From positions 1-5,332 of IMG/VR virus record IMGVR_UViG_2537561977_000027: DNA of 5,332 bases; one strand, written 5' to 3'. Position 1 is the stretch's first letter; the number at the start of each line of letters is the position of its first letter. The stretch is from a virus. Lineage: Duplodnaviria > Heunggongvirae > Uroviricota > Caudoviricetes. Positions 1-5,332 of the stretch are shown piece by piece. The notes beneath the pieces are model-generated. The model searched no databases. It saw only the letters and a program-made list of their open reading frames with translations, and had not been told where the DNA came from. Made by a program: the position numbers and the translations under genes.

Positions 1-1005
1 TTAATCCCCCGTGGACACTGCGTGGACACTCACGCCACCTTTCAGCGGATTAAGGGCCACCGCATCCTGCAGGTAATCCGGTGCAAAATGTGCATATGCC
101 ATTGTTTGCTGAATGGTTGCGTGGCCAAGAATCTTCTGAAGCGCAATAATGTTTCCTCCGTTCATCACAAAATGGCTGGCGAACGTATGCCGCAGCACAT
201 GTGCAGCCTGGCCTTTTGGTAAATCGGGCTTAACTCTTTTCAGCGCCAAGCAGAATTCCCGGTACTTCACCTCAAACAAGCCGCCTGTTTCTCTGGTTTT
301 GATCGCCTCACAAACTGCCTGCGAAATTGGCACTGTTCTCTTTCGGCCATTTTTGGTTTCAAGAAACGTTACACGGTTATGAACTATCTGTTCACCACGA
401 AGCTTACAAGCTTCACTCCAGCGCGCCCCTGTGCTTAAACACAAAAGCGCAACACGCCAGTAGTCGCCCTCCAGTGTATCGAGCAATAGCGCTACTTCCT
501 TCTGGGACAGAAAAGCCATTTCTCGTGGGGATACATAAAGAATAGAAATCCCCCTTACCGGATGCTCTGCATCCCAGAGGCCTATTTTCTTCAGTACGGT
601 AAACATTCCGGATAACCGATTCATGTATCTGTTAGCAGATGACGGTTTCAATCCATCAGCTATCTTTTGAGAACGCCACGCGATAATTTTCAGCTTATCA
701 AGATCCACAGCCTGCATATCAGCGCCAAGCTCATTGATTATGTTGCGCAGTTGTTTTCGGTCTTCTTCCGCCTTACGCCTGTGCTGGCCGTGATACATCC
801 ACCACAACTCAAGCAAATCATTTAGCGTTCGACGATCACGGTAGCCCTGTATATATTCCCGCTTTTCAGCGTTCGCCATGATGTAGCGTTCAGTGGCCAC
901 CGCTACCGATTTTTTGTCAAATACCTTACGCACGCGCTTTCCCTTGCGTCCGTTCGGCCTGATGTCCAGCAAATAACGACCATCTTCGAGCTTCTTAATT
1001 GACAT
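1..1005 (-). CDS. int: Tyrosine-type site-specific integrase, P2 Int-like (complete, 334 aa)
   Basis: Long minus-strand ORF. Tyrosine-recombinase catalytic residues are visible in order: R in TGARWSEA, H-x-x-R in HVLRHTFASH, and Y in QTMAYAHF. The N-terminus MSIKKLEDGRY and C-terminus SVHAVSTGD resemble P2 Int as I remember it. The ORF-track start at 1020 is a TTG; the in-frame ATG at 1005-1003 has GGAGGG about 7 nt upstream and is the more likely start. Stop TAA is the reverse complement of positions 1-3. Confidence 0.9.
   Translation of the reverse strand: MSIKKLEDGRYLLDIRPNGRKGKRVRKVFDKKSVAVATERYIMANAEKREYIQGYRDRRTLNDLLELWWMYHGQHRRKAEEDRKQLRNIINELGADMQAVDLDKLKIIAWRSQKIADGLKPSSANRYMNRLSGMFTVLKKIGLWDAEHPVRGISILYVSPREMAFLSQKEVALLLDTLEGDYWRVALLCLSTGARWSEACKLRGEQIVHNRVTFLETKNGRKRTVPISQAVCEAIKTRETGGLFEVKYREFCLALKRVKPDLPKGQAAHVLRHTFASHFVMNGGNIIALQKILGHATIQQTMAYAHFAPDYLQDAVALNPLKGGVSVHAVSTGD
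11..30. repeat. Direct repeat GTGGACACT x2 (11-19 and 22-30) inside the integrase 3' end; possible Int arm-type binding site
   Basis: Exact 9-bp direct repeat read from the sequence, 11 bp centre to centre, at the int 3' end where the phage attachment site is expected just beyond the window edge. It also encodes a peptide repeat (SVH/VST), so it could be purely coding. Confidence 0.3.
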
Positions 1006-1101
1006 TGCGAAGCCCTCCAATGAACCGCTCTACAATTTCTCCAGCCTCTTTCCAGCAATAATCAGACCAGACAAAGAGCAGGTCTAACCAGTTTTCTGGC
1101 C

Positions 1102-1422
1102 TTAGCGGGGTGATTTTTGGTTTGTTTCGGTTGAAACCTGATCGCCCTCCGAATCGAAGAAGCCATCAAGAGAGAGAGGCGGAGCAATCTGCCCCGTCGC
1201 AGCATTAGTTTGATTAAACATCACCCAATCCGAATACTTCCGAAAACGAGGATGATTCAAAATCAGGAGTAACGTTTCTCCAGGTATCATTCTTCCCAAT
1301 ATTTCATAATTTTTGAGATTGTTTTGAGATACCCCCGTCACCTCTTCCATCTCTCTACGTGACAATCCCTCTGCCTCTCGAATCAGGCGAAGTTTTTCTC
1401 CAAGGCTTGATTTATGGATCAT
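1102..1422 (-). CDS. C: Immunity (lysogeny) repressor, P2 C-type small HTH protein (106 aa)
   Basis: Minus-strand ORF between int and the divergent cox gene. N-terminal helix-turn-helix-like segment LSRREMEEVTGVSQNNLKNYE; the C-terminal part (RFRKYSDWVMFNQTNAATGQIAPPLS) resembles P2 C as I recall it. The ORF-track start at 1440 is GTG; the ATG at 1422-1420 is preferred. Stop is the reverse complement of 1102-1104. Confidence 0.75.
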   Translation of the reverse strand: MIHKSSLGEKLRLIREAEGLSRREMEEVTGVSQNNLKNYEILGRMIPGETLLLILNHPRFRKYSDWVMFNQTNAATGQIAPPLSLDGFFDSEGDQVSTETNQKSPR

Positions 1423-1537
1423 ATGTGATCTAAACTCCACACTATTGGGTTACATGTAATACAAAACATTCAAATAGCCAAAATAAGCCTATATAAGCCA
1501 TTTTGGGCCATTTGGCCGAATTAAGGAGATTACCACA
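1423..1537. promoter_or_regulatory. Divergent promoter/operator switch region (Pc leftward for C-int, Pe rightward for cox and early genes)
   Basis: 115-bp AT-rich spacer between divergent C and cox starts. AAGGAG RBS at 1523-1528 precedes the cox ATG. Possible -10 TATATA/TATAAG at 1491-1498. I could not place the -35/-10 hexamers for either promoter with confidence. Confidence 0.6.
1471..1520. repeat. Five-unit direct-repeat array with 10-bp periodicity (candidate Cox/C operator boxes)
   Basis: Reading in 10-mers from 1471: CAAATAGCCA, AAATAAGCCT, ATATAAGCCA, TTTTGGGCCA, TTTGGCCGAA. Each has an A/T-rich half followed by (A/G)GCC(A), in helical phase. P2 Cox is established to bind arrays of direct repeats in the Pe-Pc region; assigning these particular boxes is inference. 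Confidence 0.5.
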
Positions 1538-1825
1538 ATGAGCGAATCAGAGCTTGAGGGGTTCATTCAGGTAGCACCATATCCACTTGAAGCGGTGCCA
1601 TATCAACTATTTGCCAAGATGATTGGTCGCAAAGAATCAACCGTCAGAACCATGATTGACGCTGCAAAGTTACCAACGATTGACTTTGTGAAACCAGGTT
1701 CAGTGAAGACGCGAGCATCAGAAAACTGGGTATATCTGCCAGCATTTAACGCAGGTATGCGCAAAGCGTTTTTTGATCAGCCGAAAGAACGCCGCGATGC
1801 ATGGTTGTTGTGGCTGGGGCTTTAA
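1538..1825 (+). CDS. cox: Cox-like excisionase / early-promoter regulator (95 aa)
   Basis: First gene divergent from the repressor, with a strong RBS. The motifs PYQLFAKMIG, VRTMIDAAKLP, WVYLPAFNAG and a C-terminal WLLWLGL match my memory of P2 Cox. Confidence 0.8.
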   Translation: MSESELEGFIQVAPYPLEAVPYQLFAKMIGRKESTVRTMIDAAKLPTIDFVKPGSVKTRASENWVYLPAFNAGMRKAFFDQPKERRDAWLLWLGL

Positions 1826-1831
1826 TCATAA

Positions 1832-2038
1832 ATGACCAGCAATATCATCAGCGCCATTTTGAGCCTTGTGTACCTGGAAGTGGGAGTAATAGCGATTTAT
1901 CTGCTTAACAAGCTAACAGGGCAAAAAAAGCGCTTTATTGTTCTCAACGTTCATTACCTCGCCGCCTATACCAGAGGTCTTTTTCCGACCACTATTGGCG
2001 CGGTTCTCATAGCGTTTGTTATTTGGCTCATTGGGTAG
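1832..2038 (+). CDS. Small hydrophobic protein with two predicted transmembrane helices (68 aa), function unknown
   Basis: ATG at 1832, 6 nt after the cox stop. Two hydrophobic stretches (IISAILSLVYLEVGVIAIYLL and TIGAVLIAFVIWLIG) separated by a basic loop (GQKKRF). RBS is weak (GGGG about 12 nt upstream), so it may depend on coupling to cox. Confidence 0.55.
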   Translation: MTSNIISAILSLVYLEVGVIAIYLLNKLTGQKKRFIVLNVHYLAAYTRGLFPTTIGAVLIAFVIWLIG

Positions 2039-2142
2039 AGGCACAAAAAATGAATAAGCAACAGCAAAACAGCGAACCCCATCACATGAGGTTTCGCCGT
2101 AGATACTTCAAAAATGGACGTTATGTAGGATGCATCAATCGA

Positions 2143-2583
2143 TTAGCCAAACAAGTGTTTAAAAGCAAAGGAGATACCTGTGGTAAGCGCAGATGAGGCG
2201 GTGCTTTTTATTGCATCTATCGCCCCACTCTTGGTTGCATCGACAAGTTTATCTCCAAGCGATTGCTTAAGTGACTCTGGATCAAGTTTCAATAATTCAA
2301 GTCCTTTAGCCGTAAGTACCGCCTTATCGAAACTTTCAAAAGGAACAGCATCAGCAGATACATAACCAGCAGCAATAAGCCACTCAATGGAGTAATAACG
2401 AAGAACAAGAGCTTCATGTTTTTGCTTTCTGACCGCCGGGTCCTTCTCTTCAAACGTTGGAGCGGAAACACCGGTTAAAGCACAAACATCAATGGTTACT
2501 TTTCGGGGAAATGACTCATAAAGAAACGCAAAAGTTTTACCAACAGTTTCATTAAAAACATCAATATTTGAAGGTGTTGCCAT
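2143..2583 (-). CDS. Hypothetical protein (146 aa), antisense to the early operon; soluble N-terminal domain plus Gly/Ala/Ser-rich hydrophobic C-terminal tail
   Basis: Minus-strand ORF with ATG at 2583-2581 and GAGG 6 nt upstream. Protein-like composition, whereas plus-strand frames across the same interval are S/A/L-rich junk. Local GC is visibly lower than the flanks. C-terminal tail AIDAIKSTASSALTTGISFAFKHLFG. I do not recognise the family. The ORF-track 229-aa version (to 2832) has a junk-like N-terminal extension and a non-ATG start. Confidence 0.6.
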   Translation of the reverse strand: MATPSNIDVFNETVGKTFAFLYESFPRKVTIDVCALTGVSAPTFEEKDPAVRKQKHEALVLRYYSIEWLIAAGYVSADAVPFESFDKAVLTAKGLELLKLDPESLKQSLGDKLVDATKSGAIDAIKSTASSALTTGISFAFKHLFG

Positions 2584-2791
2584 GGATAACCTCACACAGA
2601 CAAAAGAAACAGCCATAAAAGAACTATATGACGATTTACGTTCCATCATTACACAACAAAAATCAGGTCGGCTAGACCCTACACGAGCAAAAGCCGCATG
2701 GGAAGTGGCACTGGCCAACCGGGATACTGGAGTAATTAGTGAAGTTATGGCCGAAGTAATTTTTAAACTTACAAGAAACATCAGACTGTAG
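2582..2791 (+). CDS. Hypothetical small helical protein (69 aa)
   Basis: ATG at 2582 with AGGTG 6 nt upstream. Charged, helix-like composition (KETAIKELYDDLRSIITQQK). The start codon overlaps the divergent start of the minus-strand gene within CCATGG. Stop TAG at 2789-2791. Confidence 0.55.
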   Translation: MDNLTQTKETAIKELYDDLRSIITQQKSGRLDPTRAKAAWEVALANRDTGVISEVMAEVIFKLTRNIRL

Positions 2792-2820
2792 ATCTTCAAC
2801 ACATTGAGGCAAGTCGGAAT

Positions 2821-3162
2821 ATGAAACAGCAACGTAATTCACGCTTTCGTAATGGTGCTGAACGCCACGCTAACCGTTTCGCTACCAGTGCATCACGCAG
2901 TAACATCCGCTACAGCCTGAGCGAAACACACGCAACACCGGATGGCCACGCTGTAAAACAAATCGGCGAGCATGCCTGGCTGATTGAGAAAGCTGGAATC
3001 GTGGTCCACAAATGCCCACGCAATCCGTTTACCGGAAACCGCATTTTTGCATTGAGCTGCGGCGACAATCACTTCGGGCAGGATTTCACATTATACGAAG
3101 CACTTCGCACGGTTGATCGTCTGCTTCGCGGGCAAAGTTTTATTAAACAGGCTGATTTATAA
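2821..3162 (+). CDS. Hypothetical early-region protein (113 aa), basic N-terminus
   Basis: ATG at 2821; GAGG about 11 nt upstream. Single long ORF with an Arg-rich N-terminal ~30 residues. No family recognised. Confidence 0.5.
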   Translation: MKQQRNSRFRNGAERHANRFATSASRSNIRYSLSETHATPDGHAVKQIGEHAWLIEKAGIVVHKCPRNPFTGNRIFALSCGDNHFGQDFTLYEALRTVDRLLRGQSFIKQADL

Positions 3163-3172
3163 CAGGTGCTTT

Positions 3173-3451
3173 ATGACCAAAGAGCATGCACAAGGTGTAT
3201 TTATCCGTTTTATTGATTTTCGCGGTGAACTGTTATTACGCGCATCAGCCATTGACGGAGTTGTTCCATCCGAAAAAAACGCAGCTACTTACGTTTATCT
3301 GAACGGTACGCGCCTGACTGTGGAGCTTCCGTACCAGACCGTACGAGAAATCATTAGCGAAGCTGAAAAGGCACGTCAGGTTAATGGCGATGAACCCTAT
3401 ATCGAAATTATTTGTATGGATTCAGAAGCTGAAATTCAGAAAGCAGATTAA
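3173..3451 (+). CDS. Hypothetical early-region protein (92 aa)
   Basis: The ORF-track start at 3113 is TTG and overlaps the previous gene. The ATG at 3173 with AGGTG 4 nt upstream is preferred. Stop TAA at 3449-3451. Confidence 0.55.
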   Translation: MTKEHAQGVFIRFIDFRGELLLRASAIDGVVPSEKNAATYVYLNGTRLTVELPYQTVREIISEAEKARQVNGDEPYIEIICMDSEAEIQKAD

Positions 3452-3462
3452 AGGGCGTTGCG

Positions 3463-3705
3463 ATGGGCAAAGAATATAAAACTCTCATTAATAAAGCACT
3501 TGAACGATTTTATTTTCGCTTAAGTGCATCAGGCGCTCATGCTGAACGTGCAGCCCGTGACTCATTGACCAGGGCAATCCGGAGTCTGTATGACGTGGCT
3601 TTTTACGCTGATGATCTGGATGCACTTAACGAACTTTCCGAGCTAATCTGTGCCGCAGAATGCGGGGAACATATTGAACCGTATAAGCTGGGGAATATCG
3701 CATGA
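3463..3705 (+). CDS. Hypothetical early-region protein (80 aa)
   Basis: ATG at 3463, with AAGGG 7 nt upstream. Stop TGA at 3703-3705 overlaps the next start (ATGA). Confidence 0.55.
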   Translation: MGKEYKTLINKALERFYFRLSASGAHAERAARDSLTRAIRSLYDVAFYADDLDALNELSELICAAECGEHIEPYKLGNIA

Positions 3706-3815
3706 GTATATTTATCTCATGGCTTGTTCTGATTATTTCTGTGGCCTGCGCCATTGGGATTATGCGAATTATTCATTCAGTAAAAAAGATTGAACGCTTT
3801 TTCACTGGCGAATAA
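3702..3815 (+). CDS. Candidate 37-aa single-pass membrane micro-protein (MSIFISWLVLIISVACAIGIMRIIHSVKKIERFFTGE)
   Basis: Not in the ORF track (below its length cut-off); hand-translated. ATG at 3702 overlaps the upstream TGA in ATGA, suggesting translational coupling. One hydrophobic helix followed by a basic tail. GGGGA lies 6 nt upstream. Confidence 0.4.
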   Translation: MSIFISWLVLIISVACAIGIMRIIHSVKKIERFFTGE

Positions 3816-3901
3816 CAGAGCAAATAAAACCACAGGTTAAATAAGAAAATGTAAAAACAATCCGCATTCGCGGAGGTATTCGCATACGCCAAGGAGGCGT
3901 A

Positions 3902-4105
3902 ATGGCAATTAAGCATTTTCCTGTCGTTCGTTTTACCTCCAGAGGACGTGAATACGAAGTCGACGAACGCCTGATTACCACAATCGACAAACACCGTTCA
4001 GAAAAGGATGCACATCACATCTATCTCACTGACGGCACTTACTTCTGCGCCACGAATGTGGTGCAGGTGAACCTTATCCGACAGGTACAGGAGTCACGCA
4101 GATGA
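3902..4105 (+). CDS. Hypothetical early-region protein (67 aa)
   Basis: ATG at 3902 with strong AAGGAGG at 3889-3895. Stop TGA overlaps the next start (ATGA at 4102-4105). Confidence 0.6.
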   Translation: MAIKHFPVVRFTSRGREYEVDERLITTIDKHRSEKDAHHIYLTDGTYFCATNVVQVNLIRQVQESRR

Positions 4106-4368
4106 CCATTCTGGACTACATCGCTACCCATCCGGGTTGTAGCGGCGGAGAAATCGCCGCAGCACTGAATACCCTAACCACAGCCATCAATGCTGAGTTA
4201 CGCCGACTCTGGCGCGGCGGCTTAGTCATCAGAACAAACCGCAGCACAGGTGGGCGCGCTCGCAAAGCAGGAGGCCAGGCTTCTTACCACGTAAACCCGA
4301 TGCCGTTCGGGTGTAGCAATCCACTTACTCACATGTTTAACCAGCTACTGAAGGAAACCAGAGCATGA
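4102..4368 (+). CDS. Putative winged-helix DNA-binding protein (88 aa)
   Basis: ATG at 4102 with CAGGAG 8 nt upstream. Pattern LDYIATHPGCSGGEIAAAL...LRRLWRGGLVIR followed by a Gly/Arg-rich wing-like segment (TNRSTGGRARKAGG), typical of wHTH regulators. Fold assignment is inference. Confidence 0.5.
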   Translation: MTILDYIATHPGCSGGEIAAALNTLTTAINAELRRLWRGGLVIRTNRSTGGRARKAGGQASYHVNPMPFGCSNPLTHMFNQLLKETRA

Positions 4369-4664
4369 GCACCATCAATCACCAGAAGCTACGCGAACTG
4401 GCATTTGCCCTGCAACGAATGGCAACGCCTCAAAAATTACTGGCATTTCGCGCAATGCTCTCGCCGTCTGCTGTGCTGGCACTGCTGGATGAGCTGGAGC
4501 ACGCCAGAACCACGGCTCCTGCCATTCGCCTGACACTCCATCATGAAATCGCTGATTTCTGTGCGACGTTGGAGGCGCCAGGCGAACCGGAAACGCCGGA
4601 AGCAATACAGCAAGAGCTGCTGCAACGCATTGACAAGGTTTTTGATTTTTTTCTGAACCAGTAA
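4365..4664 (+). CDS. Hypothetical early-region protein (99 aa), acidic helical
   Basis: ATG at 4365 overlaps the upstream stop (ATGA); AAGGA about 9 nt upstream. Last gene before the structured non-coding region. Confidence 0.55.
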   Translation: MSTINHQKLRELAFALQRMATPQKLLAFRAMLSPSAVLALLDELEHARTTAPAIRLTLHHEIADFCATLEAPGEPETPEAIQQELLQRIDKVFDFFLNQ

Positions 4665-4780
4665 GAAACCAGAACATGTACACACAAAAAACCGCTTGCC
4701 ATGCCGCAATCAGTCAGGTTACATTTCCGTTGCATCTCATAAAACGGGGGCCGGGTTTCGCAGCCTGCTGATCAACAAAG

Positions 4781-4810
4781 CGCACAACCGCGCCAGCGGT
4801 TTTTTGTGCG
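4781..4810 (+). terminator. Intrinsic-terminator-like hairpin followed by a T-run
   Basis: Inner stem AACCGC (4786-4791) / GCGGTT (4796-4801) with loop GCCA, then TTTT (4802-4805). Outer arms CGCACA (4781-4786) / TGTGCG (4805-4810) can extend the helix across a T bulge. A second T-run of six follows at 4828-4833. Confidence 0.45.
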
Positions 4811-4861
4811 TACCGCATTGCCGCACATTTTTTCGCATCAGAATTATGGTGGGGCGTACGG

Positions 4862-4891
4862 GGCCGACTTCGGTCGGGCCGGGTTTTCTTT
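4862..4891 (+). terminator. GC-rich hairpin with TTCG tetraloop followed by a U-rich tract
   Basis: GGCCGAC (4862-4868), loop TTCG, GTCGGGCC (4873-4880) with one bulge, then GGGTTTTCTTTG. The interrupted U-tract makes terminator function uncertain; it could instead be a stable RNA structural element. Confidence 0.35.
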
Positions 4892-4987
4892 GTTGACCGG
4901 TACTGCGAACCTCGTACGTCTCGCCACCCACAGTTTCGCAGCTCTGGATGGTGAGTATTCAAAACTTACCAACAAAGAGGCCATACC

Positions 4988-5218
4988 ATGGCAAACCGCA
5001 AACAGCACCGCGCTATCGCGGAGCGTCGTCACATCCAGACTGAAATCAACCGCAGACTTTCCCGCGCATCACGCGTCGCGCAAATCATGCACATCAATAT
5101 GCTGCATGAGCGCAGCCACGCACTATCAAACATTTATTCCGCCTCTGTTTTCAGCTATCTGGCGGATGATCTGCACGAGCTTCAACAGCTCATCCAGCAG
5201 CAAAACAAACTCCATTAA
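4988..5218 (+). CDS. Hypothetical small basic/helical protein (76 aa)
   Basis: ATG at 4988 with AAGAGG at 4974-4979. Arg-rich N-terminus (MANRKQHRAIAERRHIQTEINRRLSRASR), no cysteines. First gene after the structured region. No family recognised. Confidence 0.5.
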   Translation: MANRKQHRAIAERRHIQTEINRRLSRASRVAQIMHINMLHERSHALSNIYSASVFSYLADDLHELQQLIQQQNKLH

Positions 5219-5290
5219 TTCCTGTTCCGGGCCTTTCCTGCACCTTGCGGCGGGAGGCCTTCGCACATCTGTAACAAGAGGATTGCCGCA

Positions 5291-5332
5291 ATGATTCTCG
5301 CCAACGACTTTCTTGAATACCTGCTCAACACA
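5291..5332 (+). CDS. 5' end of a downstream gene, truncated by the window (MILANDFLEYLLNT...)
   Basis: ATG at 5291 with AAGAGG about 11 nt upstream; open to the window end. Only 14 codons are visible, so identity cannot be judged (a replication gene would be expected hereabouts in a P2-like layout, but I cannot confirm it). Confidence 0.3.
   Translation, partial: MILANDFLEYLLNT

Follow-up and report, generated by a model that had tools for sequence, protein, structure and literature searches.

Background

Immunity switches built on an antisense RNA and an accompanying leader RNA are already well known from phages P1 and P7 (c4), from P4 (CI), N15 and Gifsy-1 (IsrK), and from lambdoid phages (isrK-C4), and standard Rfam models detect both RNAs of the pair. 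The antisense RNAs of P1 and P4 are processed by RNase P, and Rho-dependent polarity is a feature of systems of the P1 and P4 type. The present study concerns a region of IMG/VR virus record IMGVR_UViG_2537561977_000027, of which positions 1 to 5,332, a stretch of 5,332 nucleotides (nt) referred to here as the window, form the left end of a P2-like prophage. Dispersed direct and inverted repeats fall within a 323 nt gap between an open reading frame (ORF) that ends at 4664 and the next, which begins at 4988; an original prediction, made from the sequence alone, had regarded such repeats as typical either of protein-binding arrays or of RNA elements arisen by duplication. Our analysis indicates that the region is very probably a secondary immunity switch that works through RNA, of the P1 immI, P4 CI or Gifsy-1 IsrK type, located in the early region of a P88-like prophage. 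No paper describing such a system in P88-like or other P2-family phages was found.

In these systems a1 and b1, upstream of the antisense RNA, and a2 and b2, downstream of it, are duplicated targets of the antisense segments a' and b'. The GenBank record of P1 lists the promoters P2c4 and P1c4, then a1, b1, the c4 RNA, a2, b2 and icd, and labels a2 and b2 as sites for 'repression of icd ant translation'; in the P1 sequence a', CTGTCAA, is an unpaired 7-mer and b', CACTAAC, is situated in a loop. C4 of P1 controls expression of the Ant anti-repressor (PMC8201110). The order in P4 is seqA (isrK-like), the CI RNA (C4-like), a2/b2 (seqC) over the Shine-Dalgarno (SD) sequence of a small ORF, epsilon, ORF151, ORF106 and alpha. 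IsrK and C4 have been equated with seqA and the CI RNA of P4 immunity (PMC3632133), and, as summarised in two reports, the CI RNA brings about premature termination through pairing with seqA and seqC (PMC4825925; PMC3632133). In the isrK-orf45-anrP system of Gifsy-1 (IsrK small RNA, STnc1160), the compensatory mutations G28A/C162U and G31A/C159U showed that the middle of IsrK pairs with downstream RNA, and short IsrK supplied in trans raised translation more than 100-fold (PMC4825925). We infer that positions 28 and 31 of IsrK, and 162 and 159 of the transcript, fall in a1 and near a'.

Two RNA families and six pairing sites

The window was compared with four P88-like phages (P884B11, 569R5, PhiR44_2 and P88) and with 13 further phage loci, comprising that of Citrobacter phage Shae_phiSM and lambdoid, Stx, ST64B, Yersinia and N15 loci; P1, P4 and six Escherichia coli prophage loci, reached through homologues of the 76 amino acid (aa) protein encoded from 4988, were also taken in. 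In total 27 modules were tabulated, 19 of them with known C4 and isrK coordinates, the later additions being seven E. coli prophage modules and P4. A search of all Rfam families returned two full-length matches above the gathering score, both on the plus strand; no tRNA or tmRNA was found. The elements of the module are as follows.

4732-4806, plus strand: IsrK-like or c4-a1b1-type leader RNA, full-length match to Rfam RF01394 isrK, 56.9 bits against a gathering score of 50
4757-4763, plus strand: a1 target TTCGCAG, core of the 10-mer at 4755-4764, in the loop of IsrK hairpin 2, exact complement of a'
4772-4780, plus strand: b1 target TCAACAAAG, a 9 nt exact complement of the C4 loop, unpaired in the IsrK-like RNA
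4786-4806, plus strand: intrinsic terminator of the short IsrK-like RNA, AACCGC GCCA GCGGTT followed by a T run, found by the terminator scan, the isrK model hairpin and the RNA fold
4842-4931, plus strand: C4-type antisense RNA gene, Rfam RF01695, 77.8 bits against a gathering score of 45, model positions 1-87 of 87
4888-4896, plus strand: b' antisense segment CTTTGTTGA, in the loop of C4 hairpin 2, unpaired in both the fold and the Rfam consensus
4903-4909, plus strand: a' antisense segment CTGCGAA, core of the inverted copy, in the unpaired stretch 3' of C4 hairpin 2
4935-4941, plus strand: a2 target TTCGCAG, core of the 10-mer at 4933-4942, directly 3' of C4, in the same position as P1 a2
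4970-4978, plus strand: b2 target CAACAAAGA, overlapping the SD sequence AGAGG (4976-4980) of the ORF starting at 4988

The leader consists of hairpin 1, hairpin 2 with a1 in its loop, the unpaired b1 and the terminator, and is separated from C4 by a spacer of 35 nt. The C4 fold has a closing stem of 17 bp around two hairpins (-44.6 kcal/mol, z -3.8), its minimum-energy and centroid structures being the same, and it leaves both 4888-4896, the loop of hairpin 2, and 4903-4909, the stretch that follows, unpaired; a conserved ...GCCACC 3' end and an AAUUAU leader are seen around it. By comparison with c4 as annotated in P1, the mature C4-like RNA would extend from about 4848 to 4928. An isrK or c4-a1b1 RNA stands in tandem with C4, immediately ahead of it, at all 24 of the related loci searched, the P1 leader matching RF03163 c4-a1b1 at the equivalent place.

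The two RNAs also resemble one another. An exact 11-mer, GGGCCGGGTTT, occurs at 4748-4758 and again at 4876-4886, in each case as the 5' strand of hairpin 2 (of IsrK and C4, respectively), such that the hairpins displaying a1 and b' carry identical stem sequence. This hints at a common ancestry of leader and antisense RNA; an Rfam clan joins c4-a1b1 and C4.

All strings quoted in the original prediction were found in place. The 10-mer GTTTCGCAGC is exact at 4755-4764 and 4933-4942, and its inverted copy ACTGCGAACC at 4902-4911 is complementary at 8 of 10 positions, including seven contiguous pairs (TTCGCAG/CTGCGAA). Taken alone, the 10-mer pair is only marginally unusual: a direct repeat of at least 10 nt arose in 87 of 2000 dinucleotide shuffles of 4691-4942 (about 4%), and 45 of 2000 contained a 7-mer in two copies flanking its reverse complement. 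However, the region contains a second, independent triple that had escaped the original prediction, CAACAAAG at 4773 and 4970 with its reverse complement at 4888; this sequence or its complement has three matches in the window, all within this region, against 0.34 expected. The segment CTTTGTTGA at 4888-4896 is the exact complement of TCAACAAAG at 4772-4780 and, with a one-base offset, of CAACAAAGA at 4970-4978. The presence of this second triple in the same region, together with the covariation in relatives described below, is the basis on which the 10-mer repeat is judged to be real.

The direct copies of the 10-mer contain the targets a1 and a2, and the inverted copy contains the a' segment of the C4-type antisense RNA. 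Pairing spans 7 nt for a' with each of a1 and a2, and 9 nt for b' with each of b1 and b2. The suggestion of RNA elements arisen by duplication thus came close to the truth, a1/b1 and a2/b2 being duplicated targets of one antisense RNA. The downstream b site overlaps the ribosome-binding site: CAACAAAGAGG is followed, after 7 nt, by the ATG at 4988. In nearly all the modules tabulated, P1 and P4 included, the 8-mer core of b2 reaches into the SD sequence, its end lying 10-12 nt ahead of the start codon; in N15 the distance is 3 nt.

The segment between a2 and b2 is itself conserved, being GGATGGTGAG at 4947-4956 in the window and GGTGGTGAG in the same place at all related loci. It complements the 3' strand of the C4 closing stem, repeating the 5' strand (ATGGTG...), which suggests an alternative pairing in the unprocessed transcript.

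Covariation of antisense segments and targets

Across the alignment of the five P88-like phages (the window and the four relatives), mean column identity is approximately 93%, and variation is concentrated in the six sites, where 29 of 48 columns vary as opposed to 29 of 208 elsewhere (Fisher p 2e-10). Without exception, the changes compensate one another across the three copies, as the alleles show.

Window: b1/b2 CAACAAAG, b' CTTTGTTG, a1/a2 TTCGCAG, a' CTGCGAA
P884B11, 569R5 and PhiR44_2: b1/b2 TACACAAG, b' CTTGTGTA, a1/a2 TTCGCAG, a' CTGCGAA
P88: b1/b2 AACTACAG, b' CTGTAGTT, a1/a2 TTTCCAC, a' GTGGAAA

The original prediction had proposed to read loss of the repeats from relatives with conserved flanks as a sign of chance. 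The letters of the 10-mer do vary while the flanks are kept, yet the direct and inverted copies change together, which speaks for pairing.

The same rule extends to more distant loci. Sites of 10 a types and 14 b types were distinguished among 19 phages, and mean mismatches, summed over the upstream and downstream sites, are 0.4 (a) and 0.9 (b) for cognate combinations as against 5.8 and 5.7 for non-cognate ones. Further P2-like prophages add the b types AAACGAAG, TAGCAAAG, AAACGTAG and TAACACAG, and P4 also obeys the rule. In an unfitted MAFFT alignment of 16 modules, 94.6% of the a1-a' and b1-b' cells are paired, compared with 61% in column shuffles and 28-53% when the partner is slid by 1-3 columns; changes on both sides occur in 13 of 15 pairs (six of seven for a1-a' and seven of eight for b1-b'), and the covariation score is 0.87 versus 0.22. 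This formal pair count covers a1 and b1, since MAFFT lost the register of a2 and b2 across lambdoid and P2-like loci; the downstream sites were examined through anchored searches with non-cognate controls. The duplex energy of a' plus b' with a2/b2 averages -25.5 kcal/mol for cognate and -12.5 kcal/mol for non-cognate combinations, the phage's own a2/b2 is the best duplex partner for 19 of 19 C4 RNAs, and the cognate energy sum was reached in none of 20000 permutations. The covariation in close relatives is the decisive evidence for RNA-RNA pairing, which is favoured over iterons or operators because antisense and target sequences change together.

One E. coli genome, GCA_900448625.1, harbours two tandem isrK-C4 modules (2247-2444 and 3076-3273 of the locus compared) with different specificity alleles, TTTCCAC/AAACGAAG and TTCGCAG/TAGCAAAG, each followed by ATGGCAAACCGC, the start of an epsilon-like ORF.

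Predicted promoter, second repeat and inverted repeat

Two further features were identified around the leader RNA.

4696-4725, plus strand: predicted promoter of the isrK/c4 operon, with -35 TTGCCA at 4696-4701, an 18 nt spacer and -10 TACATT at 4720-4725
4678-4699, plus strand: 5' arm of a 22 nt inverted repeat, the 3' arm of which lies at 4792-4813 (91% complementary)

The promoter, from which transcription is predicted to start near 4732, was the sole sigma-70-like match in a scan of 4300-5332. The TTGCCA/TACATT site is invariant across the five P88-like phages, and all relatives (lambdoid, N15, P1 and P4) have a TTGxxx-17/18-TAxxxT promoter ending approximately 7 nt before the isrK start; the position coincides with the annotated P1c4 (P51b) in P1 and, in P4, with the promoter before the immunity region. 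The occurrence of a promoter at the same position in all relatives makes TTGCCA at 4696-4701 very likely a genuine -35 element. The original prediction had proposed two -35-like hexamers, one in each copy of a second, imperfect direct repeat, and its suggestion thus holds for the first of them. The other, TTGCCG at 4818-4823, is not supported as part of a promoter: with a -10 of AATTAT it scores 8/12, under the scan threshold, its spacer is not conserved in lambdoids, and the start would lie inside the C4 stem.

The second repeat itself, ACCGCTTGCCATGCCGCAATCAG at 4691-4713 and ACCGCATTGCCGCACATTTTTTCGCATCAG at 4812-4841, does not stand up as a functional pair, given its chance-level score and its decay in relatives. 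When the two segments are aligned locally with gaps, the best alignment comprises ACCGC-TTGCC alone, with a score matched in 194 of 3000 shuffles (6.5%). Copy 2, which falls between the isrK terminator and C4, in spacer sequence that is variable, is already altered in close relatives, the forms being ACTGTATCGCC for P88 and ACTGTATTGCCACGT for three others. Lambdoid relatives have nothing equivalent to its 3' part (TTTTTTCGCATC, 4828-4839), the alignment there showing a 12-column gap. Copy 1 is not constant either: other P2-like prophages differ in the portion (..TGCCGCAATCAG..) that falls within the spacer of the promoter.

The inverted repeat brackets the entire IsrK-like RNA, its 5' arm ending in the -35 region and its 3' arm consisting of the 3' half of the terminator, the U tract and the next 12 nt. 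It is kept only in P2-like relatives, in which the lengths of the A-run and T-run change together (6/6 in the window and 7/7 in relatives), and was not found in the lambdoid or N15 loci compared. When 4665-4830 is folded, the two arms pair in a single extended helix at the expense of the terminator hairpin (-55.4 kcal/mol, z -3.3); such a helix is possible only in transcripts initiated upstream. A role as a classical anti-terminator was rejected, since the 5' arm duplicates the 5' half of the terminator instead of pairing with it, and so cannot pre-empt the hairpin during transcription.

The gene predicted to be controlled and its surroundings

The ORF whose SD sequence is overlapped by b2 encodes a homologue of the P4 helper derepression protein, epsilon.

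4988-5218, plus strand: 76 aa ORF, P4 epsilon homologue, Pfam PF25738 Derepression, 32.7 bits against a cut-off of 27, E 6e-8

P4 epsilon also belongs to PF25738, which it matches over its full length, and a BLASTP comparison of the two proteins gives 29% identity (E 4e-9). A total of 191 homologues of the 76 aa protein were detected, many of them called 'derepression protein' by NCBI, and at six loci bearing three homologues that are 74-83% identical, isrK-C4 is found upstream at identical spacing, with a small ORF and gpA afterwards. By analogy with the described systems, the epsilon-like ORF is predicted to be the gene controlled by C4. The alternative identity of an Icd homologue was discarded, as no similarity to P1 Icd and no phage_ICD_like match were found.

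The remaining genes of the window are typified by the following.

1-1020, minus strand: integrase
1102-1440, minus strand: C-type repressor
1538-1825: Cox, Pfam Phage_Cox, E 1e-22

A run of small early ORFs comes after Cox. The nearest phage records are those of the P88 group (Peduoviridae, genus Xuanwuvirus), with 92-95% identity across 4600-5332, and in these relatives the region continues with a 121 aa ORF and then the gpA replication endonuclease. Homology of this 121 aa ORF to P4 ORF151 was considered and dismissed (E 0.16).

The isrK-C4 module is present in 1148 of 5426 complete E. coli genomes (~21%), where it is usually annotated not as RNA but as protein ('ash family protein', 'transcriptional regulator', an N-terminally extended Rha, or hypothetical). 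A protein-coding reading of the RNA region, which would make the annotated ORFs more than translations of RNA genes, was rejected because the window frame is broken, by TGA at 4769-4771 and 4894-4896, and because gene callers disagree among relatives across the region, some calling the minus strand. In relatives, long annotated ORFs traverse isrK and C4 (for example 4077-4694 at one locus, the window equivalent being 4676-5294), and their translations match Pfam Phage_ASH (PF10554) and PHROGs 995, 6928 and 821 ('transcriptional regulator'); Phage_ASH and these PHROG families appear to be at least partly translations of conserved RNA genes. A further RNA was seen in the locus of the Stx-type phage phi191, where 2223-2306, downstream of a Rha gene, match Rfam sRNA-Xcc1 (79.6 bits against a gathering score of 53).

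Comparison with the known systems

The window shares with P1 immI the same Rfam family of antisense RNA and the same order, namely a promoter (predicted in the window), a1, b1, a terminator-like hairpin, c4, a2, b2 over the SD sequence and the first ORF. In both, the a' 7-mer is in an unpaired stretch and b' in a hairpin loop, and in both the specificity alleles differ among related phages. Unlike P1, however, the window has an epsilon homologue rather than Icd as its first ORF, has no Ant1/2 downstream (its relatives instead having the 121 aa ORF and gpA), and lacks a C1 operator, so that the P1 immI operon composition of Icd followed by Ant1/Ant2 does not describe it. Its leader fits the isrK model rather than c4-a1b1, and the element is a P2-like integrated prophage, whereas P1 is a plasmid prophage.

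The resemblance to P4 includes the seqA region and the CI RNA, which match the isrK and C4 models, the a and b sites, which follow the same rule, and the downstream genes, epsilon and then a replication gene. By contrast, P4 has a small ORF (MATT...) after b2, with epsilon starting approximately 245 nt past CI, whereas in the window the epsilon-like ORF directly follows b2; the isrK-C4 spacer is 107 nt in P4 and 35 nt in the window; ORF151 of P4 has no detectable relation to the 121 aa ORF of the window's relatives; and the replication genes are the alpha primase in P4 and the gpA endonuclease in those relatives. The window is closest to P4 in gene content and to P1 and the lambdoid modules in the geometry from b2 to the first ORF.

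Gifsy-1, lambdoid and Stx phages and N15 have the same RNA pair with the same spacing before a regulator gene. They differ from the window in that the genes controlled there are Rha- or Ant-type anti-repressors, not epsilon-like; moreover, the C4 region of Gifsy-1 has been treated as a translated 'orf45', whereas the corresponding frame of the window closes after 16 codons, at the TGA at 4894-4896.

A model and its alternatives

The identification of an immunity switch is founded on RNA family membership, structure, complementarity, three-way covariation, the overlap of b2 with the SD sequence, and epsilon homology. In the proposed mechanism, the promoter at 4696-4725 would initiate transcription near 4732, and a fraction of transcripts would end at the terminator at 4786-4806, giving a short IsrK-like RNA that shows a1 and b1. 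Read-through transcripts would hold the C4-like RNA (~4848-4928), probably excised by RNase P as in P1 and P4, which would leave two segments accessible, b' (4888-4896) in the loop of a hairpin and a' (4903-4909) in unpaired RNA. Pairing of b' with b2 (4970-4978) on the mRNA, assisted by that of a' with a2 (4935-4941), would block translation of the epsilon-like ORF because the b'-b2 duplex extends into the SD sequence, and polarity would probably lower transcription into the next ORF and gpA. The upstream sites a1 and b1 may compete for a' and b', either in cis or as short RNA in trans, and thereby tune or relieve repression. The model takes from P1, P4 and Gifsy-1 the activity of the promoter, RNA processing, the block of translation, polarity, the role of IsrK as a decoy and the anti-repressor action of the protein, all of which would operate here as they do there.

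The repeats could instead be DNA sites for a phage protein, either iterons or operators for the winged helix-turn-helix protein, C or Cox, as the original prediction had entertained. Direct repeats with an inverted copy in an intergenic position, beside regulatory genes and, in relatives, approximately 0.5 kb upstream of the replication gene gpA, would suit such sites. However, each motif has just two direct copies, 178 and 197 nt apart, which do not constitute a regular array; the motif is not enriched elsewhere in the window; the sites fall in or beside two Rfam RNAs, in loops or unpaired segments, the inverted copy being in an unpaired segment of C4; and one copy overlaps an SD sequence in nearly all the modules tabulated. 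A protein site would be expected to keep its sequence and not its complementarity, whereas here the sequence is free to differ among close P88-like phages, with Watson-Crick and G-U complementarity kept and the copies covarying, and we consider protein binding highly improbable. Chance similarity in a G+C-rich structured region would be compatible with the frequency at which a lone 10-mer repeat arises in shuffles, and it is the explanation we accept for the second repeat, which is at chance level. For the 10-mers it is refuted by the two independent triples, the three-way covariation over 27 modules and the absence of any equal among the 20000 permutations; as an account of the repeats as a whole it is extremely improbable.

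A different alternative retains the RNAs and changes their chief output to premature termination, in the manner of P4 and N15, or to the ratio of short to long transcripts, instead of occlusion of the ribosome site. Pairing of C4 with its upstream (a1/b1) and downstream (a2/b2) targets would in that case mainly determine whether polymerase reaches the epsilon-like gene and gpA. The early termination ascribed to the CI RNA of P4, through seqA and seqC, in the summaries of two reports (PMC4825925, PMC3632133) agrees with this, as do the P4 gene order shared by the window (RNA module, epsilon, one or more small ORFs, replication gene) and the intrinsic terminator between a1/b1 and C4. On the other hand, b2 lies over the SD sequence in nearly all tabulated modules, that of P4 among them, which points to translation as the primary target, with termination secondary, as described for P1. 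Termination as the chief output is consequently improbable in our estimation, though the two readings are not mutually exclusive, and termination-first is a live variant of the same model.

Several observations weigh against the immunity switch as modelled on the known systems. The first ORF is not an Icd homologue and no Ant- or Rha-type anti-repressor follows it, meaning that the output differs from that of P1. The epsilon-like proteins of the window, P884B11 and P88 are 97-99% identical, while their C repressors are only ~35-48% identical; the Cox of P88 is likewise very different. This near-identity across phages with divergent C repressors makes it unlikely that the epsilon-like protein is tuned to one repressor type, and argues against a simple matched pair of anti-repressor and repressor; the RNA/epsilon module seems to assort separately from the immunity module at the early left. 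The individual contacts are short, at 7 and 8-9 bp, although this is also the case in P1, and the inverted repeat 4678-4699/4792-4813, specific to the P2 lineage, is outside what the model accounts for.

Implications for P88-like phages and P4

If the repeats are the recognition code of a known type of antisense RNA switch, footprinting with phage proteins is the wrong experiment by which to study them. The association of this module with an epsilon homologue in P2-like phages of the helper type ties the immunity of the P4 satellite to that of its helper family, and the natural series of specificity alleles in close P88-like phages provides a ready set for studying how two contacts of 7-9 nt set antisense specificity. 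Among P2-like prophages whose epsilon-like proteins are 73-99% identical, at least eight b alleles and at least four a alleles occur, and P88 was obtained through mitomycin C induction (PMC5285337).

Beyond this, it is possible, if doubtful, that P88-like phages host a P4-type RNA switch with a P4-epsilon-type derepression gene in the middle of the early operon, upstream of gpA, that would add a second level of immunity, based on RNA, and offer a path to induction. The hypervariable a and b alleles would in that event set RNA-level heteroimmunity groups among P2-like prophages, the helix 4678-4699/4792-4813 would tie the fate of the isrK terminator to the promoter from which the transcript originated, and cross-talk might occur between P88-like phages and P4-like satellites bearing such modules.

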